From NCBI GenBank assembly GCA_964187785.1, contig OZ076410.1, positions 89,342,001 to 89,406,000 of the forward strand: a DNA stretch of 64,000 nt. Reading direction: 5' to 3'. Positions 29,281 through 49,237 of the stretch are shown here, one piece after another (the stretch's first letter is position 1; every line of letters begins with the position of its first letter). The translations under genes were made by a program, and so were the position numbers. The notes under the pieces were generated by a model. It was not told the origin of the DNA. It made no database searches and was given only the letters and a program-made list of their open reading frames with translations. Origin of the DNA: Amphiscolops sp. MND2022. Taxonomy: Eukaryota.

Positions 29281-29690
29281 TAATAAAAATATCATAGGGG
29301 TTGTTACTAGTGTGAGGAAATTTGTTGAAGGTGAGGAGATAGACAAGAAAGATTGTTTGAATGTGTTATAAAAAATTGCTTGCAGCATTCGGCATTACAT
29401 TTTAAATTAGTCAGGGTAAATATGTGCGAATATGTGGACGAACAGGAGGCGAATCTCTAACAATATGTTTAAGTTGTTAGTGTTAAAGTATGAACAGAGA
29501 CTCAAATTTAACTGTGGTGTGAGGGAATTGGATGTGGGTTTAAGTAGTGAAAATCAACGATGATTTCTATTTTGAGTCGTAGATTATAAGAATCTAATCT
29601 TAAAACTTCTTTTCAGCGATATTTGGGAGAGGTAGTAGTTTTAGAGTTTGGTTTATTAGTTGCAAGATGATCAAGTCTTCACGAGGATAG
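29281..29690 (-). mobile_element. Family C-like Gypsy fragment (left part of the target into which element A inserted)
   Basis: The reverse complement shares TTAAACCCACATCCA and EKEVLRLDSYNL ~ ETELKRLQTSNL with 1690-1780. Confidence 0.55.
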
Positions 29691-29755
29691 TGTCGCGTTA
29701 TGACTAACGCTTAATCAATAATACAAATGCAACTACAACAATAAAGTGCTCAACA

Positions 29756-30022
29756 AAAAACACCTGATTTAATAAAAAGCTCTACAAACATCCCAGGGAT
29801 ACTCTCCCGTTTCTAATCAAAAATTCCCCTGCAAAAATACAAAGCTAATCAATTCCCTTTGTGCTACCGCGCAGTTTATGATTAAAAACACCTGATTTAA
29901 TAAAAGGCTCAACTATCTTCCCAGGGCTTCGGAGCCGTTTCTAATCAAAAATTCCCCTGCAAAAATACAAAGCTAATCAATTCCCTTTGAGCTACAGAGC
30001 AGTTTATGATTAAAAACACCTG
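29756..30022 (+). repeat. 128-bp tandem repeat in U3 (about 2.1 copies)
   Basis: CACCTG at 29761, 29889 and 30017; same structure in the 3' LTR. Confidence 0.9.
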
Positions 30023-30221
30023 CATAAACAAAGCACAAAATTGAACTAACCTGGAGACGGAGGGAGATGAAGATAAAAAATTAATAAAGTAGGGCGGCTG
30101 GCAAAAGAAAGGGAGGCAGCAGAATAATAAAGTAAATTCTCGGGGGACGCAAATACCGTGGGATTGCACAAATGAAAAAATTCTATTATTCACCGCGGAG
30201 ATCCGAAATCTAAAGCTAAGC

Positions 30222-30300
30222 TCTGATTGTCTGAACGAAAACCAGACCAATCAGGCACTTCGGCAGAAGTGCTGAGCTGTTCTTATACGGCGCGCGCAGG
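30222..30300 (+). promoter_or_regulatory. Putative LTR promoter: inverted CCAAT boxes and a TTATA-like element
   Basis: CTGATTG(G/T)...CCAATCAG followed by CTTATAC and a pyrimidine-rich initiator-like region; the first box is intact (ATTGG) in the 3' LTR. Confidence 0.5.
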
Positions 30301-30583
30301 CTGGAGCCTCTTTCTTCCCTCTAACCGGCAGAGCTTCAACACCTAAAAAGCTCTCTCCCACTTTCTCTTCTCCTCAGCTTCTCTCCACTTTACTCAAAAA
30401 CTCATTTCCCACTTTTCTTTTCCCTCGGTCTTATTTCTTCAAGACCAAAAAATTTCTATCTTTCATTCTCCTCGTCTCCTTCCTTTGGTCTTAAAATATT
30501 TCAATCTTGTGCTAAGTCCCACAGCACCAGCAGAATTTTCTATCTTAGAAAATTCTCCTCAACTCAATTTGGACTCCGGTTTG

Positions 30584-30589
30584 GTGAGT
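30584..30589 (+). promoter_or_regulatory. Candidate major splice donor G|GTGAGT
   Basis: Consensus donor downstream of the putative promoter and just upstream of the hairpin array. Confidence 0.45.
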
Positions 30590-30646
30590 GAAAAATAACT
30601 TAGTTTCTTTTTGTGGAGATTTCTGATTCTCCCTTTTCTAACTAAG

Positions 30647-31062
30647 TTTTATCTTAGTAAAATTCCGCTGATTTCATTCAGCGGTTGTTTAAATTTTTTC
30701 TTAGTAAAATTCCACTGATTCTACTCAGTGGTTATCTGAATTTTATCTTAGTAAAATTCCGCTGATTTCATTCAGCGGTTGTTTAAATTTTATTTCAGTA
30801 AAATTCCGCTGATTCTACTCAGTGGTTATCTGAATTTTATCTTAGTAAAATTTCGCTGATTTCATTCAGCGGTTGTTTAAATTTTATCTTAGTAAAATTC
30901 CACTGATTCTACTCAGTGGTTATTTGAATTTTATCCTAATAAAATTCCGCTGATTTCATTCAGCGATTGTTTAAATTTTATCTCAGCAAAATTTCACTGA
31001 TTCTACTCAGTGGTTATTTGAATTTTATCTTAGTAAAATTCCGCTGATTTCATTCTGCGGTT
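30647..31062 (+). repeat. Array of nine 47-bp hairpin units, alternating types A and B (94-bp dimer)
   Basis: Stem starts at 30665, 30712, 30759, 30806, 30853, 30900, 30947, 30994, 31041; seven units in the 3' LTR (about 47361-47682). Confidence 0.95.
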
Positions 31063-31839
31063 ATCTCATTTCTAATTACAAAAATATTAAATAAATGGTT
31101 GGCGTTACACTAGTATTTACAAAATCATTTCACCGTGTTTACCTAGTTAGTTTGTTCCTTATAAAAAGTCCTAATACTGTCTCTCCACCCAACAGAGCAG
31201 TGACTTCAAAAAACTAAAAATTGCTGGTTTAAATTATCACCGGCTAAAATCATTTTTCATTTGCGGCAGATCTAAAGCATTTTCAATATGAAAGTGTAAA
31301 AGCTTGCATTTTAGTCTGTAAATTTTAATACTAATTTTCTGATGTACATAAATGCTCTCTGATATATTTTGTGAAGCTACTTTGCTCAAAATTGGAACAA
31401 ATCTTTCAAATTAACTGAAGTGAAGTAAGTAGTTGTTTTGCTGCTGTATTTAACAAAAGATGGAATAGATACTGAGATGCCTAAAAAATTTTATTTAGTA
31501 CTATTGTATGTTCACGTGATATAATTCAACATATTTCCTTTCAATACTTTTCCACTTTTCAGATGACTCATTTACATACACTGCCTTGCACTACTCACGC
31601 AACTCCCTTTGTTCGCACGTACACGCAAGGCATTTCCTTTCTAGTATTACACGGAGTAAGCTTTGAGACTTTCTTACTCATTTACAATCAATAATAGAAC
31701 AGCCACCTGAAAGTACTTTGCAAAATGCTACATAAGCTGAACTGACTAATACTGATAACAACTGAACAGTCACTTGAAAGGGAAAGTGATGCAAACAGGA
31801 AAAAGTAAATAGTAAAATTCATCCATGCGTGCGACAAAC

Positions 31840-31856
31840 TGGTGCGACCAGTGAGG
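31840..31856 (+). promoter_or_regulatory. Primer-binding site TGGTGCGACCAGTGAGG
   Basis: 3 nt after the LTR end. The complement reads as a T-stem strand (CTCAC) + 7-nt acceptor strand + A + CCA, like elongator-Met or Ile(UAU) tRNAs; exact tRNA not assignable. Confidence 0.8.
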
Positions 31857-32866
31857 CACCTTTCTCTCTCTTAGTAGAGAAGTAAATGAGTTATCTATTA
31901 GAATCCCTACTCTCAGAAGTTAGGGTTAACTACCTATTTCTCTTAACATTACTTCTGATCTTCTTTTTTCTCCTATTGCCCCAATATGTGGCTTCTTTGG
32001 TCTATATAAAGCATAGAACTGCTAGAAAATACTCCAATAGAATCTCTCCACCTTAATAGCCTTCAAAGAGACTGTGCACTACTCAACTTAGTCCTCTTAA
32101 TCCCCAAAACGGTTAGAGTTAATTTACTTCTTCGGAAATGCAAGACTACATTCGGTCCCAAAACAAGAATGAAAATGTTTTCTAACACGGAACTTAAACC
32201 TACAGTTGGGAAATTCACTCTTGTCCAGACGGACACATATTAAGTAAAAGCCCGCCTAGGTCTCCTCGGAGGCTGATTGAAGGCCGTGAGCCCAGTGGGT
32301 GTCCCGGAACCTGTGTAGCATTCCAAGAGGGAAACCTAGTATTCTAGTGATAGTACCCAAGTGTTTGCATGATAGTGATCTTGGCCCCGCGCACTTAATC
32401 CTGAGGACGAGAGTGACTCCCTCTGTTTGTTTATTGTATTACCTCTACAAAGGACATTGTAAGGCTAGACTAGCGAACTGAGTACCTTTTGGGACCGACT
32501 GTACTCTCCACATATATTTTTTTTTGGGTTAAATCGGAGGAGTGGTATACCCCAAACTGCCCTTTCCTTTACTCAAATAAATTTAGCGGGATTTGTAAGT
32601 ATCCCCTAAAAATTTGGGATTTGAGTATTAAACCCGGAGGACTAACGTAAGCTGAGAGGAGAGATCAAAATTTTTTTTGCATACTATTGAGTATATGCAA
32701 AGCCAGACCTGCCTAGCGCTTATCATCTTTAGAACTCTTGCAAGAGCGTGTTTTACCTTAGTCATTTGCGGTCATTTACAGAGACCTGGAGTATCCTACC
32801 TAATCGAATCTTTAATTTATTATTCGTTGCTACAATTTCTTTCTCTAATAATTTCAACAGCTCACA

Positions 32867-34324
32867 ATGGCTGCGCAAAATTACTTGGCATATCCAGACC
32901 TCGGCCGAGACCAATTCACAGGAACAGACCCAGATCAAGATCCTGAACAATTTATACAGCTCATTGAAAAGAAGTTCCGGTTTTCTCATGGTGATACCCC
33001 AGCCAACGGACCAGCACTTGATGACTACAACTTTAGAAGAAAATCCTATTTTGCTACACTATTAAGAGGACCCGCAGCAGAGTGGTTCGAGACCAGCATC
33101 ACAGACGCTAACACTTGGGCAGAAATCAGAGAGAGGTTCATCACACGATTCGCAGATGGCAGAAGCAAATTTAGACACATGATGGAAGCCGAACATGTCA
33201 TCAGACGAGATGGAGAAGAAATAAAGAACTTCCTACACAGAATCAAAATAGTAGTGGGAAAAGGATGGCCAGATGACATAGCCGGAGTTGCACAGAACAA
33301 TAGAGACGCCGAAAGGGCAGCTCAAGACAGACAAAGAAGACAGAGATGCATTGACTACTCCCTAAGAGGCCTTAGACCTCCAAAGCTGAGGGAAAAGGCA
33401 CACGAATATCTAATGGACCACCCGAACGCAACCTGGGAGCAATTTTCACAAGCAGTAATAAATAAAGACCTTTACTATACTGTAACTACCGCCCTAACTG
33501 GCGGAGAGTCACACGCAGACCCACTCATACAAGAAATGCGAGACGATCTGAAGGGAATTAAACTACAAATATAAGAACAGATGAATAACACGGTCAACGC
33601 GGTAGAGAAAACGGTAGACCCTAATGCTACAGGAAGAAGAATGGCCACACGATTCTGCGGCTATTGCCGAACAAACGGGCATACACCTAACTGGTGCAGA
33701 AAGAAAATGAGAGATGAGGAGGTCAAGAAGGTTCAAAACGAAGCTAACGCAGAGAGAAGAATAACATTCACCAACGATTACAATAAAAGAACTGGACCTG
33801 AGCACGGCTCAAGATTTCAGACAAGACTACCCGATTCAGAGATCCGAAAAAATATGGCGGTTGCACATCAACTGGCACTTGCGGGAGCCATGCAAGCAAC
33901 CCCCTCATGGAACCGATTTGATAGATCGCAGAACAGAAACTTTAACCCAGAACGCAGATCTACAAATTCTAGATTTAGCTCCGGTAACCAGAGATTTTCG
34001 CAAGAGGTTAGTAGACCTTTTTCCAATAATTCTAACAGTTCCAGAAGCATTTCCCCAGGACCACAGAGAGTTAGATCTCCTTTTAACTTCAACAGAGACC
34101 AGCCTAACTCTTTTAATCGCAACATACAACCTCTCCCACCAAGGAATAACTCAGGTTTCCAGAGACAACAACAAAACAGAAACGAAAGATCCAATACTCC
34201 TACTCAGTCTTACGAGCAAAGATTCCCGAAAACTAACGACATGGGAAGATCTAACACAGTACAATTTTTAGAGACTGACTACTCAGTGAACTCAGTAGCC
34301 GATTTTCGTCCTTTAAACTACTAA
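32867..34324 (+). CDS. gag: Family A Gag with CCHC knuckle; one in-frame TAA at 33572-33574
   Basis: ORFs 32867-33574 and 33581-34324 are in the same frame; capsid-like LLRGPAAEWF and knuckle CGYCRTNGHTPNWC. Confidence 0.92.
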
Positions 34325-34401
34325 GGTCTCCGAAAAATAAAAGTAGCAGCAGTGCCCCACTAAAATTTAGTCTTAATCTTTATTATTTTGCTGCCGGAGA
34401 C
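34312..34401 (+). promoter_or_regulatory. -1 frameshift signal T_TTA_AAC with 7-nt spacer and stem GTCTCCG/CGGAGAC
   Basis: The heptamer is in gag frame, separated from the TAA by one codon; the -1 frame is open into the protease; stem arms at 34326-34332 and 34395-34401. Confidence 0.8.
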
Positions 34402-37400
34402 TCACAAAAAGATAGTGGCTTGGAAATTGAATTTCTACTGGACACTGGGGCAACATCTTCAATCATCAACTATAGAACATTTAGAGAACTTTGTCAATTT
34501 CAACAAGATCTTGAACTCAGTAGGAGCAACAACACAACACGGAACTACTCTGGTCAAATCATCCCTATGATGGGATACATTTCGCTAAGACTCTACTATG
34601 ACTCCGACGGCCAACATAACTTCCCTCTGACAATCTGGATCACCGAAATGAAGACACAGAACCTTCTTGGAATGAATTTTTGCCAAGAACAAGTCAACAA
34701 AATACACTTCGATCTTCCCGGCATAGAACTCAAGAAACCGACTAATACCTTCTGTTACGGCAGTCTTCAACTCAACAAAAGTTACCCTTATGTATCGCAA
34801 ATCTTCTCTGTCCGGATTCCTTACTCAATGTATATCGAGCCAAAAACGACAAGGTGTTACAAATTTGCACCGGAGAACACTAAGAACTCTTTTCCTCCTG
34901 GATCTACGTTCCTACCCAACAGAAAGGCAGTCTCTACAGGACTCAACTTCATAAATGTCCTTTGTACACGGTTTGAGAAGACTTTGCCAATCGTTATGGA
35001 AAACAACAAGAACCATACAATCACGCTAGTAAAAGGAACAATAGGATACTCCATGCTAGACGTCATAGACAAAGAAATCCCAAAATATCAGATTAGAAAT
35101 CCTACCGAACCCGCTTACACCATTTTAAGCGAAAACGAAGAATACAATGATTGCTTCTTACTACACTCTACTATCCCTTCACAAGATATGAACGATTGCC
35201 TCAGAATAGAAGGAGGAAATTCCACAACAATACTCAGCAGACCAGATTCTGTCATCATCTTTGTCCCGGCTGATCTAAAGCCAGCCAAAGGCTTCTCTAA
35301 AGAAATTTTAACAAAAATACCTTCACTAAAAGACTCTTGCGCAAAACAGAAGCCACAAAAAGGCGACACAATACCATACTGGGATACAACTCTAAAGCGA
35401 TTTATATACGTCCTAATAACTAAAGCTAAATCGAAAGACAAAATCGACCCACAAATCTTAGCCCAATCGCTGGAAACACTAAAAGCCCACGCTAAAATGA
35501 ATAATATCAAAACTGTTTCTATGTTACGAGAAGCATCAGAACTAGAGCACTTCCAATGGCAAGACGTTACACAAATTATTCAAGACATTTTTGCCTACTC
35601 AGAAATACAACTCCGAATTTATACAAGAAACGAGCTAGATGTCTACGCCATGACTACCAGAGGAGACCCCGAATATGCACTAGAAGATGAAATACAACAC
35701 TTTTCAGAAGAATTCCACTTGAAGCACAGAGAACTGGAAACTGACTTTACTAGAGACGCAAAGTCCTGTCAACCACCTTGTGAAGAACAATTCAAGATAT
35801 TTAGGCCCAAAGAAGACAACGAACGTCTCATTGAATACTACCTACAATATCAGAACAAGGAAGCAGTTCAATACATCAAGGAATTTGACTTTCGCTACTC
35901 AGACCTCACAGACGAAGAACTTGTTCTTCTAATAGACCTACTAATGGATGCTAGAGATGTATACTCACAACACAAGTTCGACGTTGGAAAGACTAGACAG
36001 AAATTTAACATTAAGCTGGAACAGGGAGCAATTCTGAAGAGACAGAGACCTAGCAAAGTACCACTACACCTACGTGAGAAGTTAGAAAAACTACTAACAC
36101 AGCTCAAAGAGGCTGACATAATAAGAGAAATGGGAGATGACGACGAAATGGGATCCCTATTCGTAAACCCCATCATCCTACAACCAAAACACGATTATGT
36201 TAAGCTGATGATAGACGCAAGATACCTGAATTCAGTAACTGATCTAACAAACTACTCCTGGCCCTTGGAACCAATCCAAACCATAATGACGCTCATCAAC
36301 GGGAAGATATTCTCAGTAGGCGATCTCTCTTGCGCTTTTCACCAAATCCCACTAGATGAGCCCACACAGAAGCTAACTAGCTTTATAATTGGCGGTAAAC
36401 AATACACATTCACCAGAGGATTCTACGGACTTAAAGGATTACCCAGCTTCTTCAGCCGTATGATGACAATCCATTTTGAACCCCTCATCAAGAAGAAACA
36501 AGCAATAACCTACATAGACGACACGTTAATGCAGGCCAAAAACAAACAAGAGATGTTCACAGTTATCCAAGAATACCATGACCTACTACGGAAAGCAGGA
36601 CTCAAGGCAGCTCCCGACAAAACACTATTCTTCTTGCGAAAAGTTAAGTTCCTGGGACATGTGATTGCAGCAGACGGAATACAACCTGTAGCTAAGCGAG
36701 TCAGGGATCTTCACAATCTCAAATCGCCAAAAACAAAAACTGAGGTAAAAAGCTTCCTAGGGGCTCTGGGATTCTATAGCTGTTACATCAAGAATCTACA
36801 TGTCGATAGCCGGCCTTTCTACGAGCTGACCAAGAAAGATACAAACTTTTGTTGGAAACAAGAACATGAAGACCTCTTCCAAGAAATAAAGAAGAGAATC
36901 AGCGAAGACACAGTTCTTGCAGTACCTTCAACAAAACACCCATTTCATATACACGTAGACTCGTCCAATGTGGGGACAGGATGTATACTCATACAACAAT
37001 TTCCAGAGGGGAAACGGATCATCTCTTTCAATTCCAGAATTTTCGCAAAAGAAGAACAAAAGATGTCCGCACTACTTAGAGAACTATGTGGAATAGTCTC
37101 AGCACTACAAACATATGAGCACTATATCATTGGATCTCCCTTCCCGATCTATCTATATTGTGACCATAAACCAATTCTTTATCTCTGGGGACGAAAAGGA
37201 CAGGTTTCACCGCGATTCTTTAGGTACCAAGTGATTATTTTCAAGTTTCCCAATCTAAAGATAATATGGACGCCGGGAAGCAACCTAGCCTTCCCCGATA
37301 TACTCAGCCGAAATGTCTCAATCGAAGAACACAAGAAACACCAACTTAGCCACAAGATCCTACCCAACGACATACACTTCTTCGACGAGCACGGGACTCA

Positions 37401-39949
37401 AGTTCACTACAAAATCAAACACGAGGAAAACGACGAAACTTCAAAGAACGACTTCTACCCTATATTGTACGAAAAGGGGGATGAACGGAAAATCCTTCAC
37501 CTACAAAACGACGGTAATAACTTCACAGTTAACAATGTCTACGAGGAACCTAACCTGCCGAAGATTGAATCGGCACAAAGTTGTTTTGACGCCGGAAAAG
37601 AAATCAGAAATTACGAAGAGCTACGAATCAGATCTGGCACGCGAGAAAGCACTTCCGATATATCACAAAATACTTACAGCTCGGTTAACAGCGACGCCGA
37701 TGACGAAGCCCCTGCAGATGATGAACGTCAAGAAGTGAACGAAACAAATTATGAGCCTAATACGAGTTCCCCGACACTCCAAGAACGTACCCCTGAAAAT
37801 GATAAGGCAGCCGACAATTACGAGCTCCTTAAAACCACAATAGGAAAACAAAAGACATCAACACGAGAACTCATAGGCCAACTCGATAAGATTTCCAAAG
37901 AAGCGGAGCTAAACGTCACAACAATTTTACAAGAACAAATTAATGACCCAGTCCTCAGTGTGGTTCGACAATGGATGAAGACAGGAAACAAGCCTACGCC
38001 AAAGTCACCAGAACTACAACATTCGAAAGGCCTCATGCGCTACTTTCAGGAATTTGACCGACTAACTATAGAAGAACAGGGAAATCTCCTCTGCTACAAC
38101 GAGCCAACTGACGACCCGGCCGACGAAAACCTGAGAATCTGCCTACCTCTCTCTCTATTTCTAGCTTGCTTCCGTATGGGACATTACAACGACCTGGGCG
38201 GCCATATGGGGGCTGAGAAAACTTACCTAAATGCTAAAAGATTCTACTACTGGCCCGGAATGCACGACTGGATCTGTGCCCTCACACAAGACTGCGTTAG
38301 TTGCCAATCTAACAAATCCAAACAAAGAAGAAATAACGAAGTCCCACTGGAAGACTGTGAAACAGAGACCCAAGTATTCAGAACAGTTCATATCGATCAT
38401 AAAGGACCACTCAACCCTCCCAGTCGTGGAAATTCACACTGCCTTCTCATCATTGACGCATTCTCGCGCTATTTGATGGCATACCCGGTCCGAGACACAG
38501 GAGCGCACTCAACAATCAACGCTATGGAAAAATGGATAATGCACTACGGGATACCACAATCTATCATAGATTGTGGTATCCCGTAGTGCATTATCCATTT
38601 TTGTATTATGATGTATTATGATAATACATGATAGAGGAACAGCTTTTGTAAACACTGAGTTCGTCAACTGGACAAAAGAGTTTGGCATTACTCTTCGACC
38701 AAGAACTGCACACTCACCCTGGACAAATGGCAAAGTCGAGACGCAAAACCAACACATCGCAAGGTACTGGAGAAACTTCCTAAATGAATCAGGAAATAAC
38801 TGGGCCCAACTAGCCGCTAAACTTGCATTCGCCCACAACACAAGCGTCAACTACACAACAGGAAAGACACCCTACGAGATAGTGTTCTGCAACAAACCAC
38901 AAATACCTATGAGTCTGAAGCTGGGACTATATAGGAATAAAAACAAGAACTGTAAATCACAATTCTGTAACGGACTACCTCCACACCGCCATAGTGAAAA
39001 CCACGTAAAAAACGAACTATTAAATGGACTATTACGACCACAACTATCCCAAAACTTGCTGGAAAGAGAAACAGCCTTCAAAAAGATCTACTCATCCACA
39101 TACGAAAAGTGCAGACAACAAACAGCTCGATCACACGCCTACAGAAACAGATTTAAACTCGGAAACCACCTCAACATAGGACAAAAGGTCCTGCTAGAAA
39201 ACCATCGAAAAGATCTTTCTAAAAGCCAAAAACTTCAGCAACTACGATTAGGACCCTTTACAGTCACCAAGAGAATCACCTACACAACTTACCAAATAAC
39301 CGAAGATCGAAATCCAGAGAACCTCCGAACTGTACATAGAAATCACCTAATAGAATATTTTCCCAAAGAGGAAACACTCCCCCCTCTAATCGAAGAATAC
39401 ACAACTCCCCACCGTGGAGACACGGATTTTTATAACAATCTCGTCAAGGGAAGAATTGAACAACTTAATGTTTCAGAACCACAAACAATGGGAGATCTCT
39501 GCATATTGCCAGTTCGGACCCAACAAGATCAAATACTTGCCCGCAAAAGAGAACAAACCCCACAGAGCACATACTCTGGTATCATTTCTCCAGAAAACCA
39601 GTTGTTGGCAACCCCACAAACTCCCGATCAGCCTTCGACCTCACATCCTCGCGACACCGCAACCCCTATCCTAACGTTGACTCAACGTCAACTAACTCCA
39701 GCACGACCAACTAACAACCAGGCGTCTTCAAATAAATCACCGACCCCTTTGCAAGAATTACGAAGAGCTGTAGCCCGCCACATAGAAAGAAATCCACGAT
39801 ATCAACGAGCACAGCCCAATCAACCAGCACAACAGTCCGTCCTTCGTGAAAGGACTCGAATTGGTTACAAAGATAAAACCTTATCATGCCTTGCCATAAA
39901 GTATATCTACAATTGCCCTGGCAAGTTCCACGAGAACTTCAGTCCTTAG
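34312..39949 (+). CDS. pol: Family A Pol: protease, macrodomain, RT, RNase H, integrase; frameshifted by a 58-nt insertion at 38569-38626
   Basis: LLDTGATSS; GDLSCAFHQI..YIDD; HVDSSNVG..ELCGIV..CDHKP; H-H-CVSC zinc finger; IDHKGP..HDRG..GKVETQN. Confidence 0.96.
35200..35625 (+). CDS. TARG1/OARD1 (Poa1p)-like macrodomain within Pol
   Basis: RFIYVLITKAK..QSLETLKAHAKMNNIKTVSM..LEHFQWQDVTQIIQDIF parallels TARG1 [48 protein letters not shown]. Confidence 0.8.
38528..38602. repeat. Perfect 37-bp inverted repeat with a 1-nt loop (foldback insertion in integrase)
   Basis: 38528-38564 is the exact reverse complement of 38566-38602. Confidence 0.97.
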
Positions 39950-40272
39950 GTGTTCTCAACGTAACAATTACAAAAATCTACTGGACCTACACCAACAAGC
40001 TAGTTAGAATCTGCTTCTACTCCAAAGACCCAGACCCGAGCCATAATAAACAAACAACGCCCCGAAAATCAAACATACCTATACGCCCAGAATCTAAGAC
40101 CTTTGCTCTTCTATATCAACACCTCGCATACTATGCAGTCACACACCACGACCCTATCCTAGAAGAACTCCTATCCTACATGCCTACCCTAATACCTGAC
40201 CTACAACCTTCCCTACCTAATACTAAAATGGACCTATTCTGCTGCTCTACTATCTCCTCACCTAGCTCCTAG
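39886..40272 (+). CDS. Accessory ORF a (128 aa), small paralogous family
   Basis: ATG-started ORF overlapping the pol end; shares VYLQLPWQVP and ITKIYW..LVRICF with ORFs b-d. Confidence 0.6.
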   Translation: MPCHKVYLQLPWQVPRELQSLGVLNVTITKIYWTYTNKLVRICFYSKDPDPSHNKQTTPRKSNIPIRPESKTFALLYQHLAYYAVTHHDPILEELLSYMPTLIPDLQPSLPNTKMDLFCCSTISSPSS

Positions 40273-40442
40273 CCTGCCACGAATAGTAAAAAGGTTTTCT
40301 TATCATTTTTTATTATTGTTTGCTTTGGTTTACCGATACTGTTATATTATTTGTGCAATCCCGAAAGAGCCATACAAAAGGCCACAAAAGACTGAAGCAT
40401 ATAGAAAAATAGGGAAGTTTAAGAGTGGAGAGACTTCAGAGC

Positions 40443-41033
40443 CTACTCCAGCTCTAAATAGCCCCCCATCTCCGCCAGTTTCTTCAATTGCTGGACCCGC
40501 TCAGAATTTGTCCATGCGGGCCATAACCGACGAAACTGACCCCGCTGAAACGAGGTTAATCGGGAATTGCCCAAGATATGACTCCTGTGCTGGAACAGGA
40601 GCACTTCCCCCTGCCCGGCCAGGAGTCTTGACTCCCAGGCCCTACCATACTGTTGTAGCAGGAACGAAGCAAAGGCATCCGAAAGGGGAGGTCTACCGAC
40701 CATGTACCCCCGTACACCCCTCGTCCCTCGGTTGTCCTCCACCCACCTCTCCAACCGCGTAACATCCCCCCAATCATAGAGATCCATGAACGTTTCTCTG
40801 TCCGGGTTACTAATGAGCCCTGGTATTAATCTAACCAGCGGACGAATAACACGGGGCGCGGGGGAAGAACCAACAGGAACCGAAGTGTCCGGGCGACTAG
40901 GCCCGGCCACAGACATTGCTGAGGAAGCAACAACAGCAGCAGACGAAGAAGAGACGACGACAGTAGACGTAGTCGGGGCCGTAACGCCCGACGACCCACT
41001 AGGGGCAAGATTATTGGTATTATTGCTGCTCAT
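40443..41033 (-). CDS. Antisense accessory ORF (about 196 aa from ATG 41033), unknown function
   Basis: Uninterrupted ORF with a Ser/Thr/Val-rich N-terminus and a globular C-half; bounded by AT-rich gaps, with a minus-strand AATAAA near 40310. Confidence 0.6.
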   Translation of the reverse strand: MSSNNTNNLAPSGSSGVTAPTTSTVVVSSSSAAVVASSAMSVAGPSRPDTSVPVGSSPAPRVIRPLVRLIPGLISNPDRETFMDLYDWGDVTRLERWVEDNRGTRGVRGYMVGRPPLSDAFASFLLQQYGRAWESRLLAGQGEVLLFQHRSHILGNSRLTSFQRGQFRRLWPAWTNSERVQQLKKLAEMGGYLELE

Positions 41034-41232
41034 TACTAAATGCAAAGTAGCTATTGATAGTCATGTAAACCTAAATAAAAAATATATTGATTTAATACTT
41101 TTACGTCTTTATTTGTTTACCCTAGTATTCATAAATTCAATATATTATCTGCCCTTTATTCCTCGGTAATTAAACACGAAATCATCTGAAGTCGTGTTAA
41201 TAATTTTTACTGTAAGACTGTTTTCAAACGCA

Positions 41233-41531
41233 ATGAAAATAACTGATGATTACATTCTCAGATTTGCTCTGTTTGATGAACACAAACCACGAGGCAAAAC
41301 ACCCCACAGATGATCATAATATTCAAAATCGACAATAGACATTCACAGATCACGGACATTCAGAAGGAGCCCTCAACACAGAACATCATCATACAAGCCT
41401 ACGCAATAGCAGAGGAAGAAAGTGAAACCTACACTTGTGTGCCAGCATCACCCATCTACCCACTACTGGAGAGCTTGCTATATAACAACACCCCTACTGA
41501 AGTCTTCACCAGAGCCAAATCAGTCATTTAA
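41233..41531 (+). CDS. Accessory ORF b (26-aa piece plus 73-aa piece joined by an ATGA overlap or a frameshift)
   Basis: MKITDDYILRF...R* overlaps ATG 41310; paralog pattern ITDIQ..NIIIQAY. Confidence 0.5.
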
Positions 41532-41926
41532 TGTCCTCTCCCGCAGTAGCTGTCTTCCGCGGAAATAATTACTACTTCCACACCCAATTTCAACCTTCTG
41601 TTCCTTGGACGCCCATACAACTCAAGGGCCAATACGAAATACAGTCAATTTTCTACGAGATCACTACTTCTGCGATTCAAGTTCGTATCCTCACGCCAGA
41701 GGACAAAGAAGCTCTAGTCCTCTTCCCTATTCACTTCGGGTCCAAGGAATACGCCTACTTATTTCTTTCGTTCAAGCAATACATACTCCAACACCCCACC
41801 GTCCTCAAAGACAAGGCCTTCGACGACTTGGTTTATTTCATGGACATCACTCTCACCTCCAACCCCTTTGAAGAAGAAGTCCGAATCAAATACCTTCATA
41901 GCCTAGTCGACACCTACGATGTTTAA
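41531..41926 (+). CDS. Accessory ORF c (131 aa)
   Basis: Starts in a TAATG overlap with ORF b; pattern IQSIFY..AIQVRI..SKEYAYL. Confidence 0.65.
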   Translation: MSSPAVAVFRGNNYYFHTQFQPSVPWTPIQLKGQYEIQSIFYEITTSAIQVRILTPEDKEALVLFPIHFGSKEYAYLFLSFKQYILQHPTVLKDKAFDDLVYFMDITLTSNPFEEEVRIKYLHSLVDTYDV

Positions 41927-42260
41927 GATTCAACTCAAATTTCTCTGGCGGCATCCAGAAACAAACACCCTCCTAGAAATCCTCTCTATCGCTTGGAAAG
42001 ACAGCGCTCCAGTGATCCAAATAGAAATCCATAGTCTTCGACCGCACCAGCCAGGCCACTGGCTCATCCCGGTAGAAACCGACTCACAAGAAGCTGCCGC
42101 TCTCGCACAATCCCTCAAGGAATACAGACAGATAGCATACTTAAATCACATTCACCCTCTTACACTCTTCCTCCTCAACAAACTCATCGACTTCATCGAC
42201 TCGAGAAGAAAAAACAAACCCTCTCCCAGTCTGCAATTCATCAGTGACAATTACAGCTAA
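41919..42260 (+). CDS. Accessory ORF d (113 aa)
   Basis: ATG overlaps the end of ORF c by 8 nt (ATGTTTAA); pattern IQLKFLWRHP, ILSIAW..VIQIEI..SQEAAAL. Confidence 0.65.
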   Translation: MFKIQLKFLWRHPETNTLLEILSIAWKDSAPVIQIEIHSLRPHQPGHWLIPVETDSQEAAALAQSLKEYRQIAYLNHIHPLTLFLLNKLIDFIDSRRKNKPSPSLQFISDNYS

Positions 42261-42320
42261 ATCTTCACAAATGGTTGAAGTTAGTCTCTTTCAAATACTC
42301 TTCATAGGCACTCTTTTTCT

Positions 42321-42588
42321 AACAGTAGTGAGGTTACTACTATAAAATTTTAGCCTCCGCTTAGCGCAGTGCCCGCTAAGCTGCCGGTTTGATATTACGG
42401 CTTGCCTTTTTACGGTCTTACTCCTGGATCCATTACCTTAACTACAACTAAAAGAATAACAGACTTCTCTTTTTCTTAGGTACGTGTGAACAGTAGTGAG
42501 GTTACTACTATAAAATTTTAACCTCCGCTTAGTGTTGTACCAGCTAAGCTGCCGGTTTGATATTACGGCTTGCCTTTTTACGGCCTTA
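42321..42588 (+). repeat. Two 100-bp direct repeats (42321-42420 and 42489-42588) with pseudoknot/hairpin potential, flanking a splice acceptor at ~42479
   Basis: Near-identical copies; TTCTCTTTTTCTTAG|G lies between them; env ATG is 70 nt downstream of copy 2. Confidence 0.9.
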
Positions 42589-42657
42589 CAACGGATCCAC
42601 ATCTTCGAATAAAAGATTTCACATGATTGATTTTGCGAAGATTGCAAAATTTCAAAA

Positions 42658-44802
42658 ATGAAACTATTTTTCCTACTCTTTTTATGCGCCTATTACGCGC
42701 CCGTTGTGATCTCACAACGCCCTACGCCAAACCTCGCTAGCGTTGCTAAAAAATTGCGAGTTACTCATTTCGACTGCGGCGAAATGACCCAAAACAAGCT
42801 CTACGCATTGAATCAAGTAGAGCAATGCAATGTGGCCCCAGAAAACTTAGAAGTAAGTCGTGCTAGCGTAACGTTATACACTAAACACTTTCGCCGCACT
42901 ATCAACGCCACTATGTGCCGTGTGAAACATCAGAGTGAAGAATGGCATTGTGGTCATCACGACCACTCCAGTATGTCAATTCTACACAACGGAATCACTA
43001 GCGATCTTTCCTTGTCCCCCGAAACCTGTAAGGCAATGGGTGAAGGAAAAGAAGTCATAATCCATGGACAACTCCTTAGATTTAAAAAAGGAGTGAAACA
43101 AGTACAGACGAGAAACGCCAAATACGGAAAAAGTTGGGACGGGGTACGCGACCCTGATACCCGCAATGAGTGCAAAACAGGAGGATGGATCAAACGCGAA
43201 ACTTTCGAATCTCACATCCAAGACGCTGAGTTATCAGTCAAAACCCGAGATGGAAAGGTCCTCACACCGTTTCAGATGGTCCTTCCCTGTCCTTTGGAGC
43301 AACTTGGTTGTGAAACGACGTCACTGGACCCCTACGCATACACATGGGCAGAACCCGATAATTGCGTGCTTGCAGTACACAGAAAGGAAATGGTGAACAT
43401 GATAAAACACGGATCTAACTACTATTTTGTCAGCGGCAACGATTCCACTACCAAATTTTTATTCGAGGTCTACAACAGACCACAAAAGTACTGCAACAAA
43501 CCCGACGATGTATACCCGACCAACTACGAATCCCTGTACGTTTCAATCCAACTTGGTGGCTTCGACATGACCTCCGGCAGAAGACTCGGCATCTCCATGG
43601 GCGAGACATCTAAACTTCAATATTACTCACCTGACGATGGTTCTGGTAATGGCCGACTCCACCTCTTCAGAGGACCCAGCGACTCTAACCCCAATACACC
43701 ACATTATCTCAACATGGATTACGAGCTCCACCAAGGAACAAAGTTAGATTATCTCTTTTTTGAGAGCACCCGCTTACTTGAAGCTTCAGAAATCCAGCTT
43801 TTGAAAGCTCAATGTGAACAAGAAAGAACACAAATCCTCACCATCTTGATGCTCTCCATGGAAAACCCACGACTTGCCGGATACATGCTCACGGGAAATC
43901 GCTCAATGTTCCTGAACACAGATGGTAGCCTAGCATGGCTCTACCACTGCCCAGAATCCCACTCACCTCTTCACACGATGAACCAATGCTACGACCGCAT
44001 ACCCATCTTCTACAAAGGAGTGGTCGCCTTCGTGGACCCCATCACCCGACAGACTTATCCTAATGCGAACGTGCACAATTGCAGCGATCGCATTAAGAAC
44101 CTCTTCCAACTGGACATGGAAGACAAAGATTCCTGGTTTACCCTCACTCCTTCACCCGAACACCGTGACCGACCTGCTATCTTCGGACCCAAGGACATCC
44201 AACCACTGATTACCAGATCCTTTCCTGGATCACAAGACGCAGGAATGTACACGCCAAAACAACTCTCGGAATTTTGGGATAACATCCTCATCAGCGCAGC
44301 TTCACGAAATGCCCTCCAGAAGTTTTCACGAGAACTCATCATCCCTTCAATGGCCCATAGCGGACCCGAATCATTTGCGTATTATGCACCCCGTACCGAT
44401 TTTTACGTTGACGGTATGATATCACCCGACTACTTCAAAAATCAATTCCTCGAAACCTTCGGAAGTATATCGTACGTCCTCGAACTCTGCGGCGCGTATT
44501 TTGGCGCCTTTCTTTTTATTAAATTCGTTATAGATATCACGGTCCTAGTCTTCCGCTATTTCGAACTTCGTCACCTTACTGGTAATACCCTGAGCTTCAC
44601 TAAAACCTTGCTCAGTGCTTCGTACAATCTTTTCTTTACCTCCGTTTTAACTTCCGTATTCACCCCGCGGGCCCCTCTCGAGGATAGCATTGAAGAAAGA
44701 ACAAAAACGGAAGACGAAATAAAAGCGGTAGAACTTCAAAATCTGAAACAAAAAGAGGAACCACTATACCCCTCAATACAGAGCTTCGTAGCTCCAATTT
44801 AA
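42658..44802 (+). CDS. env: Intact envelope glycoprotein, 714 aa, class III fusion-protein-like (chuvirus G / herpesvirus gB type)
   Basis: Signal peptide MKLFFLLFLCAYY; Cys-rich ectodomain; QCEQE..NPRLAG..G..C..CYDRIP resembles gB WCELQ..NPNAIAS..G..C..CYSRP; C-terminal hydrophobic anchor. Confidence 0.88.
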   Translation: MKLFFLLFLCAYYAPVVISQRPTPNLASVAKKLRVTHFDCGEMTQNKLYALNQVEQCNVAPENLEVSRASVTLYTKHFRRTINATMCRVKHQSEEWHCGHHDHSSMSILHNGITSDLSLSPETCKAMGEGKEVIIHGQLLRFKKGVKQVQTRNAKYGKSWDGVRDPDTRNECKTGGWIKRETFESHIQDAELSVKTRDGKVLTPFQMVLPCPLEQLGCETTSLDPYAYTWAEPDNCVLAVHRKEMVNMIKHGSNYYFVSGNDSTTKFLFEVYNRPQKYCNKPDDVYPTNYESLYVSIQLGGFDMTSGRRLGISMGETSKLQYYSPDDGSGNGRLHLFRGPSDSNPNTPHYLNMDYELHQGTKLDYLFFESTRLLEASEIQLLKAQCEQERTQILTILMLSMENPRLAGYMLTGNRSMFLNTDGSLAWLYHCPESHSPLHTMNQCYDRIPIFYKGVVAFVDPITRQTYPNANVHNCSDRIKNLFQLDMEDKDSWFTLTPSPEHRDRPAIFGPKDIQPLITRSFPGSQDAGMYTPKQLSEFWDNILISAASRNALQKFSRELIIPSMAHSGPESFAYYAPRTDFYVDGMISPDYFKNQFLETFGSISYVLELCGAYFGAFLFIKFVIDITVLVFRYFELRHLTGNTLSFTKTLLSASYNLFFTSVLTSVFTPRAPLEDSIEERTKTEDEIKAVELQNLKQKEEPLYPSIQSFVAPI

Positions 44803-44838
44803 AAGATAAACCTTTCTCATCAAATGTATTACTTTTAG

Positions 44839-45327
44839 CAACTAGACTCAATTTTCGACCTACCAAACCTGGACGAAGACAACCCTAACCCTAACCTCGA
44901 GGATGACTTAGAAATCGAGCCCCTATCACCATCGGACCTGCTATCCCCAATATCACCCACAACAATCAACTTCCTCCTAGACCCACCAGACTCAACAGTT
45001 TCCTCTCCCCCAAGGGTGCCTACAACAACAACCTCATCAACAACATCAGAGCGACCCCCCTTTCCGCTGTCGTTCACAGAAGAGGTAGCACCTATCCCAT
45101 CAACTCAACATCCACCCCGATTCGGCGGAAAAGATATAAGAAGAATCTTCCCCAGAAAACACCACCACCAATGGAACAACGAGATAGCGGACCAGGCACC
45201 ACTAAATAAACAACACAAAAGGGAATACTATACAAAAAGGGCCCGATATGTTAAAAGGCCTAGATTCAATGCAGACTTAAAGTATACCCTACTTCCCCAA
45301 TTCTCATCATGGAACATCGTTTTCTAG
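44839..45327 (+). CDS. ATG-less open frame after a TTTTAG acceptor: acidic, Pro/Ser/Thr-rich, with a basic C-terminal cluster
   Basis: The frame is open from 44839 (QLDSIFDLPNLDED...) to the TAG at 45327 and contains KRARYVKRPRF. Confidence 0.45.
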   Translation, partial: QLDSIFDLPNLDEDNPNPNLEDDLEIEPLSPSDLLSPISPTTINFLLDPPDSTVSSPPRVPTTTTSSTTSERPPFPLSFTEEVAPIPSTQHPPRFGGKDIRRIFPRKHHHQWNNEIADQAPLNKQHKREYYTKRARYVKRPRFNADLKYTLLPQFSSWNIVF

Positions 45328-46430
45328 GACAACAAGAGACAAGAATACACTATAGAGAACCCTGCACTCAAAGGACAAAGACTAACTGTCCCCTTAAGAT
45401 CAATATCCGCACAATGAATCACAGGCTAAATCCTAATGCTGCCCCCTTCATCCCAAAAAATAATCCTTCCTCCCATACTACTACACCCGATTGGCCACCC
45501 ATATCAAAACCAGATGATCCAGAAGAACAAGAGACTCTCGAGGGAATAGAAAGATTGAGCAAATGGATATCAGAATTAAAAACCTCAACCAAATCACGTT
45601 GCCAAAACGAAAAACTACTAGAAACCCCGGTTCTTCGGAAATCATTTCCCTTAACAGAAACCTTACAGTCTAAAACGAAACTTGATGGCAAAGTGAAACA
45701 ACTCTACAATTCGGCAGAAGAAGCAAGGACTAGATGTCTACAATTAGAGACCACAATATCCAACTTACAAGCAACTATAAAATACCAATGCTCCCTCCTC
45801 AGAAAAACTAATATCATCGATGGGAGAAACAATGAACCCTTCCTGTGGCAGATTCCCGCATTTTCTACACTATACCGGAAAGCAAAAACCTTCCCGAATG
45901 AACCACTAAGCAACTTCAAATGTAGCTTCACCAGCCCCATCTATACCACTCACCTAGCAGGCTGCAAAATATCCCTTAGACTATTTCCATATGGGATAAA
46001 CCTCTTTCGTGGAACCCACTCCTCCATTTGCTGTGAGCTCCATTTTAGCGACTTCACCCTCCCTCGAACATGGCCCTTCGAACGACAATTAGAAATCTCC
46101 ATCATAGATCAAAAAGACAAAAACAACAAGTGGTCTACCTACTTCCCAAACAACTCTGACAAGAACAACCAAGACGACACCCACGCCGGCACCTACACCC
46201 TTCCTGAACTCATGCGAGAAGATTTCATCCCTCACACAAAACTATTGGTCAACTTCAGGGAAGCCTTTTTAAACAACGACTCTGTAATCCTCCAAATTAA
46301 ATTTAAAAATCCTCCCCCTTTAAAATCCCAAGTGCTAAAGAATCCCCCCTTCATTTCTGACCTACCCCAGATACCTCATTCTTTTCTCCCTGCCAGGGGG
46401 GTGAGCTGTCGCGTTATGACTAACGCTTAA
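45309..46430 (+). CDS. PAM2 motif + coiled coil + TRAF-C/MATH domain protein (373 aa; probable start ATG 45414)
   Basis: LNPNAAPFIP at 45426-45455; helical heptad-rich region; MATH 45840-46304: FLWQIP..FTSPIYT..GCKISLRLFPYG..RGTHSSI..WPFERQLEISIIDQ..FLNNDSVILQIK. Confidence 0.88.
   Translation: MEHRFLGQQETRIHYREPCTQRTKTNCPLKINIRTMNHRLNPNAAPFIPKNNPSSHTTTPDWPPISKPDDPEEQETLEGIERLSKWISELKTSTKSRCQNEKLLETPVLRKSFPLTETLQSKTKLDGKVKQLYNSAEEARTRCLQLETTISNLQATIKYQCSLLRKTNIIDGRNNEPFLWQIPAFSTLYRKAKTFPNEPLSNFKCSFTSPIYTTHLAGCKISLRLFPYGINLFRGTHSSICCELHFSDFTLPRTWPFERQLEISIIDQKDKNNKWSTYFPNNSDKNNQDDTHAGTYTLPELMREDFIPHTKLLVNFREAFLNNDSVILQIKFKNPPPLKSQVLKNPPFISDLPQIPHSFLPARGVSCRVMTNA
46395..46406 (+). promoter_or_regulatory. 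Polypurine tract of family A (AGGGGGGTGAGC)
   Basis: G-run immediately 5' of the 3' LTR. Confidence 0.8.
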
Positions 46431-48455
46431 TCAATAATACAAATGCAACTACAACAATAAAGTGCTCAACAAAAAACACCTGATTTAATAAAAAGCTCTA
46501 CAAACATCCCAGGGATACTCTCCCGTTTCTAATCAAAAATTCCCCTGCAAAAATACAAAGCTAATCAATTCCCTTTGTGCTACCGCGCAGTTTATGATTA
46601 AAAACACCTGATTTAATAAAAGGCTCAACTATCATCCCAGGGCTTCGGAGCCGTTTCTAATCAAAAATTCCCTTGCAAAAATACAAAGCTAATCAATTCC
46701 CTTTGAGCTACAGAGCAGTTTATGATTAAAAACACCTGCATAAACAAAGCACAAAATTGAACTAACCTGGAGACGGAGGGAGATGAAGATAAAAAATTAA
46801 TAAAGTAGGGCGGCTGGCAAAAGAAAGGGAGGCAGCAGAATAAAAAAGTAAATTCTCGGGGGACGCAAATACCGCGGGATTGCACAAATGAAAAAATTCT
46901 ATTATTCACCGCGGAGATCCGAAATCTAAAGCTAAGCTCTGATTGGCTGAACGAAAACCAGACCAATCAGGCACTTCGGCAGAAGTGCTGAGCTGTTCTT
47001 ATACGGCGCGCGCAGGCTGGAGCCTCATTCTTCCCTCTAACCGGCAGAGCTTCAACACCTAAAAAGCTTTTCTCCCACTTTCTCTTCTCCTCAGCTTCTC
47101 TCCACTTTACTCAAAAACTCATTTCCCACTTTTCTTTTCCCTCGGTCTTATTTCTTCAAGACCAAAAAATTTCTATCTTTCATTCTCCTCTTCTTCCTTT
47201 GGTCTTAAAATATTTCAATCTTGTGCTAAGTCCCACAGCACCAGCAGAATTTTCTATCTTAGAAAATTCTCCTCAACTCAATTTGGACTCCGGTTTGGTG
47301 AGTGAAAAATAACTTAGTTTCTTTTTGTGGAGATTTCTGATTCTCCCTTTTCTAACTAAATTTTATCTTAGTGAAATTCCGCTGATTTCATTCAGCGGTT
47401 GTTTAAATTTTTTCTTAGTAAAATTCCACTGATTCTACTCAGTGGTTATCTGAATTTTATCTTAGTAAAATTCCGCTGATTTCATTCAGCGGTTGTTTAA
47501 ATTTTATCTTAGTAAAATTCCGCTGATTCTACTCAGTGGTTATTTGAATTTTATCCTAATAAAATTCCGCTGATTTCATTCAGCGATTGTTTAAATTTTA
47601 TCTTAGCAAAATTTCACTGATTCTACTCAGTGGTTATTTGAATTTTATCTTAGTAAAATTCCGCTGATTTCATTCTGCGGTTATCTCATTTCTAATTACA
47701 AAAATATTAAATAAATGGTTGGCGTTACACTAGTATTTACAAAATCATTTCACCGTGTTTACCTAGTTAGTTTGTTCCTTATAAAAAGTCCTAATACTGT
47801 CTCTCCACCCAACAGAGCAGTGACTTCAAAAAACTAAAAATTGCTGGTTTAAATTATCACCGGCTAAAATCATTTTTCATTTGCGGCAGATCTAAAGCAT
47901 TTCCAATATGAAAGTGTAAAAGCTTGCATTTTAGTCTGTAAATTTTAATACTAATTTTCTGATGTACATAAATGCTCTCCGATATATTTTGTGAAGCTAC
48001 TTTGCTCAAAATTGGAACAAATCTTTCAAATTAACTGAAGTGAAGTAAGTAGTTGTTTTGCTGCTGTATTTAACAAAAGATGGAATAGATACTGAGATGC
48101 CTAAAAAATTTTACTTAGTACTATTGTATGTTCACGTGATATAATTCAACATATTTCCTTTCAATACTTTTCCACTTTTCAGATGACTCATTTACATACA
48201 CTGCCTTGCACTACTCACGCAACTCCCTTTGTTCGCACGAACACGCAAGGCATTTCCTTTCTAGTATTACACGGAGTAAGCTTTGAGACTTTCTTACTCA
48301 TTTACAATCAATAATAGAACAGCACCTGAAAGTACTTTGCAAAATGCTACATAAGCTGAACTGACTAATACTGATAACAACTGAACAGTCACTTGAAAGG
48401 GAAAGTGATGCAAACAGGAAAAAGTAAATAGTAAAATTCATCCATGCGTGCGACA
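46407..48455 (+). repeat. Family A 3' LTR (2049 bp)
   Basis: TGTCGC...GCGACA followed by the TSD ATAG. Confidence 0.97.
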
Positions 48456-48459
48456 ATAG

Positions 48460-49037: not shown

Positions 49038-49237
49038 NNNNNNNNNNNNNNNNNNNNNNNNNNNNNNNNNNNNNNNNNNNNNNNNNNNNNNNNNNNNNNN
49101 NNNNNNNNNNNNNNNNNNNNNNNNNNNNNNNNNNNNNNNNNNNNNNNNNNNNNNNNNNNNNNNNNNNNNNNNNNNNNNNNNNNNNNNNNNNNNNNNNNNN
49201 NNNNNNNNNNNNNNNNNNNNNNNNNNNNNNNNNNNNN
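49038..49237. other. Assembly gap (200 N)
   Basis: Run of exactly 200 N; adjacency across it is not established. Confidence 1.

Follow-up and report, generated by a model that had tools for sequence, protein, structure and literature searches.

A modular cassette of selected accessory genes and structured RNA in an env-bearing Ty3/Gypsy element of Amphiscolops sp.

Regulatory and accessory genes are usually taken as a mark of vertebrate complex retroviruses; foamy viruses, human T-cell leukemia virus (HTLV) and human immunodeficiency virus (HIV) carry such genes around env, together with an antisense open reading frame (ORF) and structured cis-acting RNA. The 64,000-nucleotide stretch of the Amphiscolops sp. 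MND2022 assembly analyzed here (contig OZ076410.1, positions 89,342,001 to 89,406,000; hereafter the window) raises the question of whether a Gypsy element can hold a comparable set of genes, and of what such genes would do for it. At positions 29691-48455 of the window lies an element that an initial annotation, made from the sequence alone, had described as an independently evolved complex retrovirus. We find that this copy, which inserted recently and is now defective, belongs to an abundant Ty3/Gypsy family with env, and that its env and seven accessory ORFs are under purifying selection and are functional genes of the element. On balance we favor a reading in which the 3' cassette mixes self-regulation with modulation of the host, with Env giving cell-to-cell spread.

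We searched the 1.07-Gb host assembly for relatives, took the accessory region from 12 other copies, and compared the window pairwise with three or four of them for each ORF (ORFs are named by their first position or main feature). The ratio of replacement to silent divergence (dN/dS) was below 0.45 in every unsaturated between-subfamily comparison for all eight ORFs. Unsaturated pairs gave 0.08-0.39 for ORF 39886, 0.14-0.43 for the antisense ORF, 0.01-0.16 for ORF 41310, 0.02-0.17 for ORF 41531, 0.04-0.30 for ORF 41919, 0.05-0.15 for env, 0.09-0.40 for the acidic ORF, and 0.15-0.26 for the TRAF ORF. Fisher p values fell below 1e-4 in all between-subfamily pairs, though not in five young pairs. 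The dN/dS comparison, the main test that the initial annotation had proposed, finds the accessory ORFs present in other copies and evolving under purifying selection rather than neutrally.

These results bear directly on the view that the extra ORFs are passengers without selective value, or frames open by chance, in a recently active element. Many copies are near-identical, so an open frame by itself proves little, and two long frames of the window, at 40193-40762 and 40780-41169, shadow the antisense ORF and are broken or divergent in other copies. Against this, silent changes outnumber replacement changes several-fold up to saturation, and the accessory frames remain open at 30-68% protein identity across divergent families; already refuted for the eight ORFs tested, neutral carriage is a very improbable account of the cassette. 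Apart from the two shadow frames, the extra ORFs are thus borne out as genes by selection and a shared layout, the short ORF at 41310-41531 among them.

The layout itself extends well beyond near-identical copies. The TRAF ORF has 108 genome matches, in groups at about 85-96, 64, 57-60, and 35% identity, and a same-strand pol match lies upstream of it in at least 50 of the 60 best loci, mostly 9.7-10.7 kb away. In loci L040 and L042, whose pol is 76-77% identical to that of the element, every ORF is kept in order at 30-75% identity. More distant is L041, with 61% identity in pol: four small ORFs are present, env is 57% identical, the acidic ORF has a start of its own, and the TRAF protein contains a coiled coil. 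An extra 176-residue ORF is open in both L040 (2129-2659) and L042 (5713-6243) and has no Pfam match; by eye it had appeared MATH-like, which was not borne out.

The boundaries and core genes leave the identity of the element in little doubt (all features lie on the forward strand except the antisense ORF). A target-site duplication, ATAG, at 29687-29690 and 48456-48459 flanks two long terminal repeats (LTRs), the 5' LTR at 29691-31836 and the 3' LTR at 46407-48455, which have TG...CA ends; their alignment of 2049 columns shows 16 substitutions (0.78%) and, in addition, four indels, where the count by eye had been roughly 15-20 sites. One of the indels, of 94 nucleotides, equals two 47-nucleotide units, by which the 5' LTR is the longer. 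These units form arrays in both LTRs (30640-31070 and 47355-47690), with two alternating variants and a 7-bp hairpin in most units, and near its start each LTR holds a tandem duplication of about 128-139 nucleotides that is 90% identical (29756-30022 in the 5' LTR). The primer-binding site (31840-31857) comprises 18 nucleotides complementary to a host tRNA-Met gene; its pattern has four genome matches and the reversed-pattern control none, and ARAGORN calls the tRNA as Met/CAT. A polypurine tract (46395-46405) precedes the 3' LTR. Between them, gag (32867-34324; Pfam Retrotrans_gag, E 9e-5) is followed in the -1 frame by pol (34279-39949), which encodes protease, a macrodomain, reverse transcriptase (RT), RNase H, and integrase. 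In Pfam the order protease-RT-RNase H-integrase is that of Gypsy elements, and the best Protein Data Bank (PDB) match of the RT is Ty3 (E 2e-31), ahead of foamy virus (E 5e-22), murine leukemia virus (E 1e-17), and HIV (E 3e-4). By these sequence comparisons the LTR features, pol order, and Ty3-closest RT all fit membership in Ty3/Gypsy (Metaviridae), and the duplication, primer site, purine tract, and gag-pol that had been annotated are all present; env, the antisense ORF, the acidic ORF, and the TRAF ORF likewise occupy the places that the initial annotation gave them.

This copy carries three lesions: a stop in gag at 33572-33574, a break of the integrase frame at a 37-nucleotide perfect inverted repeat (38528-38602), and a premature stop that cuts the acidic ORF short at 45325-45327. 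Among the best genome matches, 47 of 52 for gag are open over at least 468 residues without a stop and 24 of 49 for pol have an open frame of more than 1800 residues, while 42 of 48 full-length env matches lack a stop. Because relatives are mostly open, we attribute the three breaks to this copy and not to the family. The perfect palindrome, considered as an RNA element, was rejected, since it coincides with the break in pol. The stretch from pol to the 3' LTR measures 6.46 kb, in line with the extra coding capacity of about 6.5 kb first claimed, but only about 5.6 kb of it codes. Close to the left end of the element, remnants that resemble gag and show a zinc-knuckle pattern (27649-28882) indicate that it probably inserted into an older element; 580 bases to its right is a 200-base assembly gap (49038-49237).

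The cassette begins with small ORFs. ORF 39886 (39886-40272, 128 residues) overlaps the end of pol, and ORFs 41310 (41310-41531, 73 residues), 41531 (41531-41926, 131 residues), and 41919 (41919-42260, 113 residues) follow in a row, the stop of the first of these three overlapping the start of the next. ORFs 39886, 41531, and 41919 are, by profile comparison, paralogues of one new and unnamed family with a predicted beta4-alpha3 fold. The three window proteins compared alone, pairwise as profiles, gave weak matches (probability under 10), but profiles from which close relatives had been left out recovered each paralogue, with best E values of 6e-11, 5e-9, and 7e-10 on a single-comparison scale. 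Three L041 ORFs align with the same three window ORFs. A search of the paralogue profile against 1.84 billion proteins, with representatives taken at 50% identity, yielded 71 representatives; the 65 short ones appear to be true members, about six long repeat proteins being cut by length. ORF 41310 was not convincingly recovered by the profiles of this family. The AlphaFold model of ORF 41919 consists of four strands, forming a sheet, and three helices (pLDDT 81) and found no significant fold match in the PDB, in BFVD, or in a wide VIA search; the best score was Z 5.3, to ribosomal L29 helices, with PH domains at 4.8-5.0. The ESM Atlas gave no usable match for the 41531 protein or for the antisense domain. 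In one protein, P0230, a member of the small-paralogue family runs straight into a gag-like N terminus, which suggests that other families place small ORFs upstream of gag. A 24-residue hydrophobic ORF at 42271-42345, considered as a small fusogen, was rejected, since it is truncated or absent in L031, L035, L037, L039, and L041.

On the opposite strand between the first and second small ORFs, the antisense ORF (40443-41033, minus strand) encodes 196 residues with a low-complexity N terminus and a conserved C-terminal domain of about 120 residues. It had no match in protein-family searches, has 98 genome matches, and is the sole open frame of the six in all eight loci compared.

Downstream of the small ORFs, env (42658-44802) encodes 714 residues with a signal peptide, 16 cysteines, and a C-terminal membrane anchor; no furin motif was found. 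Its match to Pfam PF24664 (Monjiviricetes_fusion; E 2e-32, 112 bits against a cut-off of 27) places it among the chuvirus-like, gB-family fusion proteins. It had no sequence match in the PDB, and a search for relatives among viral contigs found none. Membership in the fusion family is thus supported, and the class III fusogen of the initial annotation is a putative one. A second env-like ORF in the window, at 2778-4058, is 35% identical to the element's env over residues 269-622, and decayed pol pieces at 16851-17903 and 18555-18857 point to another env-bearing element nearby.

Directly before env, the gap holds a repeat of 101 nucleotides, a unit present in two to five tandem copies per element. 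Each of the two units in the window (42307-42401 and 42479-42569) is predicted to form an H-type pseudoknot with two hairpins and a 5-bp long-range pairing. The unit pattern has 181 genome matches against none for the reversed pattern. Over 17 units the proposed fold pairs 96.6% of cells, with 7 of 21 pairs changed on both sides; none of 500 shuffles reached as high, and slid controls stayed at or below 56%. The upstream 5-mer pairs with the first-hairpin loop over at least 5 bp in 15 of 22 units (shuffled mean 2.0, maximum 8), G-U pairs point to the sense strand, and the changes recur across separate helices and lineages. A TATA-like hexamer lies within the invariant loop of the unit. None of the 12 weak window matches to Rfam 15 overlaps 42300-42600, and twister, pistol, hepatitis delta virus-like, exoribonuclease-resistant RNA, and internal ribosome entry site readings were set aside, as the helix order is unlike any of these folds and Rfam offers no match. 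The tandem pseudoknotted RNA before env thus covaries and, going by these comparisons, is new to Rfam; of the structured RNA elements first proposed, this one stands, whereas the perfect palindrome in pol is a lesion. In L041 a different structured repeat, in five copies, occupies the same place before env (3190-3940) and has just two features in common with the window unit, an A-rich linker and a terminal hairpin whose loop is GUUU-like.

Behind env, the acidic ORF (44839-45327) follows a conserved acceptor-like site that was found after env and before this ORF in five of five loci. It lacks an ATG of its own in the window, L037, L039, and L040, and in L037 and L040 its stop overlaps the start of the TRAF ORF. 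Its 188 relatives make up a family with a Ser/Pro-rich acidic N terminus bearing Ser-Pro motifs (median net charge -8 over 70 residues in the best 120 of the 188), a basic helix, and a small conserved three-strand beta domain, a build that suggests a nuclear regulator. Derivation of the beta domain from the integrase C-terminal barrel was tried and failed (probability 0.18), and fold searches with this domain turned up nothing significant. A relative in the metagenome contig L045 (1260-2300) lacks env and TRAF but keeps one RNA unit, in which additional compensating changes occur, immediately ahead of a homologue of the acidic ORF, along with the purine tract and a similar LTR start. That the RNA unit and the acidic ORF are kept together there fits a self-regulatory pair.

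The remaining two features had been read as host-directed in the initial annotation. The macrodomain within pol (35225-35645) resembles TARG1/OARD1, matching TARG1 structures at E 4e-11. The 120 pol relatives listed are all unnamed; the domain occurs in 30 of them, many of the others being too short to hold it. Two motifs, which we take to be the ADP-ribose-binding loops, are kept in 21 and 22 of 27 aligned rows, but both are replaced in this subfamily and neither is present in the window, P0013, or P0014. The ADP-ribose counter-defense proposed for this element is accordingly not supported, although it would be plausible for the sister families that keep canonical motifs; here the domain may be a non-catalytic relic or a binding module. 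Our literature search found no description of a TARG1-like domain in Gypsy pol, and the available portions of PMC4695847 and PMC12440569 added nothing on macrodomains there. A set of fused gag-pol relatives at 41-47% identity (P0058, P0068, P0090-P0107, P0162) has no macrodomain match; about 640 residues precede their gag domain, and these residues have no Pfam match.

The TRAF ORF (45414-46430) encodes a PAM2-like motif, a putative coiled coil, and a TRAF-C (MATH) domain (MATH_2, 46 bits against a cut-off of 32; match to TRAF5 at E 4e-7), and the Pfam scan found neither a RING nor zinc fingers in it. TRAF1 likewise lacks an N-terminal RING, and a RING-less TRAF-C protein is the classic build of a decoy. 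The PAM2-type motif recurs in 27 of 30 loci as well as in L040. TRAF genes of the L041 type have 123 genome matches, most without stops, and are closer to cellular TRAFs (E 1e-14 against 4e-7 for the window); no PAM2 match was found in the L041 protein. TRAF-C capture is therefore old in the lineage, and PAM2 was either gained later or lost in L041.

A decoy-like TRAF protein invites the thought that the cassette is mainly an anti-host arsenal, made up of a TRAF decoy, an ADP-ribose eraser, interference with translation, and small paralogues acting as antagonists of host defense proteins. Besides the decoy build, such a reading can draw on the tandem expansion of the small family and its spread across about 65 clusters at 50% identity, on the canonical macrodomain motifs of sister families, and on the TRAF and antisense proteins, which are only 38-60% identical between subfamilies whose env proteins are 95-96% identical. 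The apoptosis and ubiquitin domains of the planarian Burro elements have been interpreted in the same spirit in the available text of PMC6431247. However, within one pair of copies the silent divergence ranges from 0.5 in env to about 2 in TRAF, with the antisense ORF also at about 2. Because silent divergence differs between modules of the same copies, we conclude that modules were exchanged by recombination, and because it is equally high in TRAF, an arms race cannot be read from the low identity of the TRAF proteins alone. No between-subfamily dN/dS exceeded 1, the macrodomain motifs are lost in this subfamily, and the RNA unit and the acidic ORF are retained where env and TRAF are missing. 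We consider a predominantly anti-host cassette unlikely.

The converse position, that every accessory gene works for the particle and RNA cycle of the element itself, would reduce TRAF-C to a trimeric scaffold for recruiting poly(A)-binding protein, with host signaling left untouched. The retention of the PAM2-type motif agrees with this, as does the four-strand-plus-helix topology of the small paralogues, which recalls single-strand nucleic-acid binders (MRP1/MRP2 were weakly listed, E 0.3), and translational coupling among the ORFs suggests a fixed stoichiometry. Yet the fold matches of the small paralogues are not significant, and the L041 TRAF, lacking PAM2 and closer to cellular TRAFs, implies that TRAF-C came first. 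A cassette devoted wholly to the element's own cycle is more doubtful still than an anti-host one.

We therefore return to the mixed reading. The genome RNA would yield Gag and a frameshifted Gag-Pol, with reverse transcription primed on tRNA-Met, and the 3' genes would be read from shorter, possibly spliced RNAs. Stop-start overlaps would couple translation of ORF 41310 to 41531 and 41919, and of the acidic ORF to the TRAF ORF, and Env would act as a class III fusogen that moves particles from cell to cell. On the self-regulatory side, the acidic protein, with its activation-like N terminus, basic helix, and small beta barrel, may be a nuclear transactivator or an RNA-handling factor, and the tandem pseudoknot may act in cis on how the 3' RNAs are exported, stabilized, or translated; perhaps the antisense and small proteins belong on this side as well. 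On the host side, the RING-less TRAF-C protein may be a decoy adaptor like TRAF1, which in this subfamily would be linked to poly(A)-binding protein through its PAM2 motif.

Several observations weigh against this scheme. A crude splice scan found one consensus donor only, inside the 5' LTR. Family and profile searches gave the accessory proteins other than TRAF and the macrodomain no named relatives, and comparison of the acidic-protein beta domain with chromo, Tudor, and SH3 barrels reached at most Z 3.9. The PAM2 match of the window scores 16.6 against a Pfam cut-off of 20, so that the PAM2-TRAF gene of the initial annotation holds up in encoding TRAF-C without a RING, together with a conserved PAM2-type motif, but falls short of a Pfam PAM2. 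In one young pair ORF 39886 has a dN/dS of 1.22, on 2 silent and 8 replacement changes. The RNA units are related by descent, which inflates the significance of their covariation, and helix 1 is invariant. L041 has no clear antisense ORF, no PAM2 match, and a different repeat before env; since it differs in all three, the antisense ORF, PAM2, and the RNA unit are not universal.

How does this element compare with known systems? Its accessory genes, antisense ORF, and cis RNA are shared with complex retroviruses, and the acidic 3' ORF is placed like foamy virus Tas, but its RT is Ty3-like and its env is not of the retroviral class I type. No homology to retroviral accessory genes was found, 1 of 58 members touching Gag_spuma_C at E 0.23. 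The claim of a complex-retrovirus architecture is thus upheld for the selected accessory genes, and not in the sense of retroviral kinship, as this is a Ty3/Gypsy member with a non-retroviral RT and env. A full complex-retrovirus program is a tentative extension that we rate as possible though improbable: an acidic protein and double pseudoknot paired like Rev and the Rev response element or acting like Tas, a beta4-alpha3 family binding RNA or host proteins and expanded by tandem duplication, an HBZ-like antisense switch, a PAM2-TRAF decoy blunting host signaling, and Env carrying particles between cells.

Genes for gB-type env are widespread in Gypsy elements, the "ancient errantiviruses" of Chary and Hayashi (PMC13524379). 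These HSV (herpes simplex virus)/gB-type errantiviruses share with our element the gag-pol-env order, an env of the chuvirus/gB family that forms a separate ORF after pol with signal peptide and anchor, and recent multicopy spread. In contrast, the 2.7 kb that separate pol from env here are taken up by five accessory ORFs and the RNA array, and env is followed by two more genes; the available text of that study does not mention macro or TRAF. For non-insect genomes, its initial filter accepted no more than 1 kb from pol to env and a total of 10 kb, with later manual steps wider, and surveys that require env near pol may miss elements such as this one.

Burro/GYPSM1 elements of planarians join Gypsy pol, a mononegavirus-like env, MATH_TRAF_C, and accessory ORFs (PMC6431247), and the novelty first claimed for this combination was therefore overstated. 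The likeness extends to MATH_TRAF_C as a separate ORF in Dugesia tigrina and to proposed meddling with the host. Compared by described layout and domains, however, Burro exceeds 30 kb and places env in frame between gag and pol within a 4,900-residue polyprotein with BIR, BCL2, ankyrin, and SUMO-like parts (PMC6431247), whereas the element has separate genes 3' of pol, and the Pfam scan of 13 element frames found none of those four domains. For the acidic ORF the best functional model, likened by description, is CERV, the Rev-like, spliced, phosphorylated export factor of the Gypsy element Cer1 in Caenorhabditis elegans, which is needed for export of genome RNA (PMC10309623); it is a single regulator and not a cassette. 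Tor elements of Oikopleura also bear env, whose RNA arises via splicing or an internal promoter, and the available account describes no accessory cassette (PMC4402516), while rotifer elements have varied third ORFs (PMC5408684). Our literature search, which covered published descriptions and not Repbase or Dfam, found none of the present layout. The Gypsy cases we found thus hold either a lone regulator (CERV) or a giant polyprotein (Burro), and here a whole modular cassette is under selection in several families of one genome. Its unnamed content, comprising two protein families, an antisense domain, and a pseudoknotted RNA, comes in parts each small enough to test alone, and a convergent origin of Rev- or Tas-like control and of TRAF decoys outside Retroviridae becomes testable.

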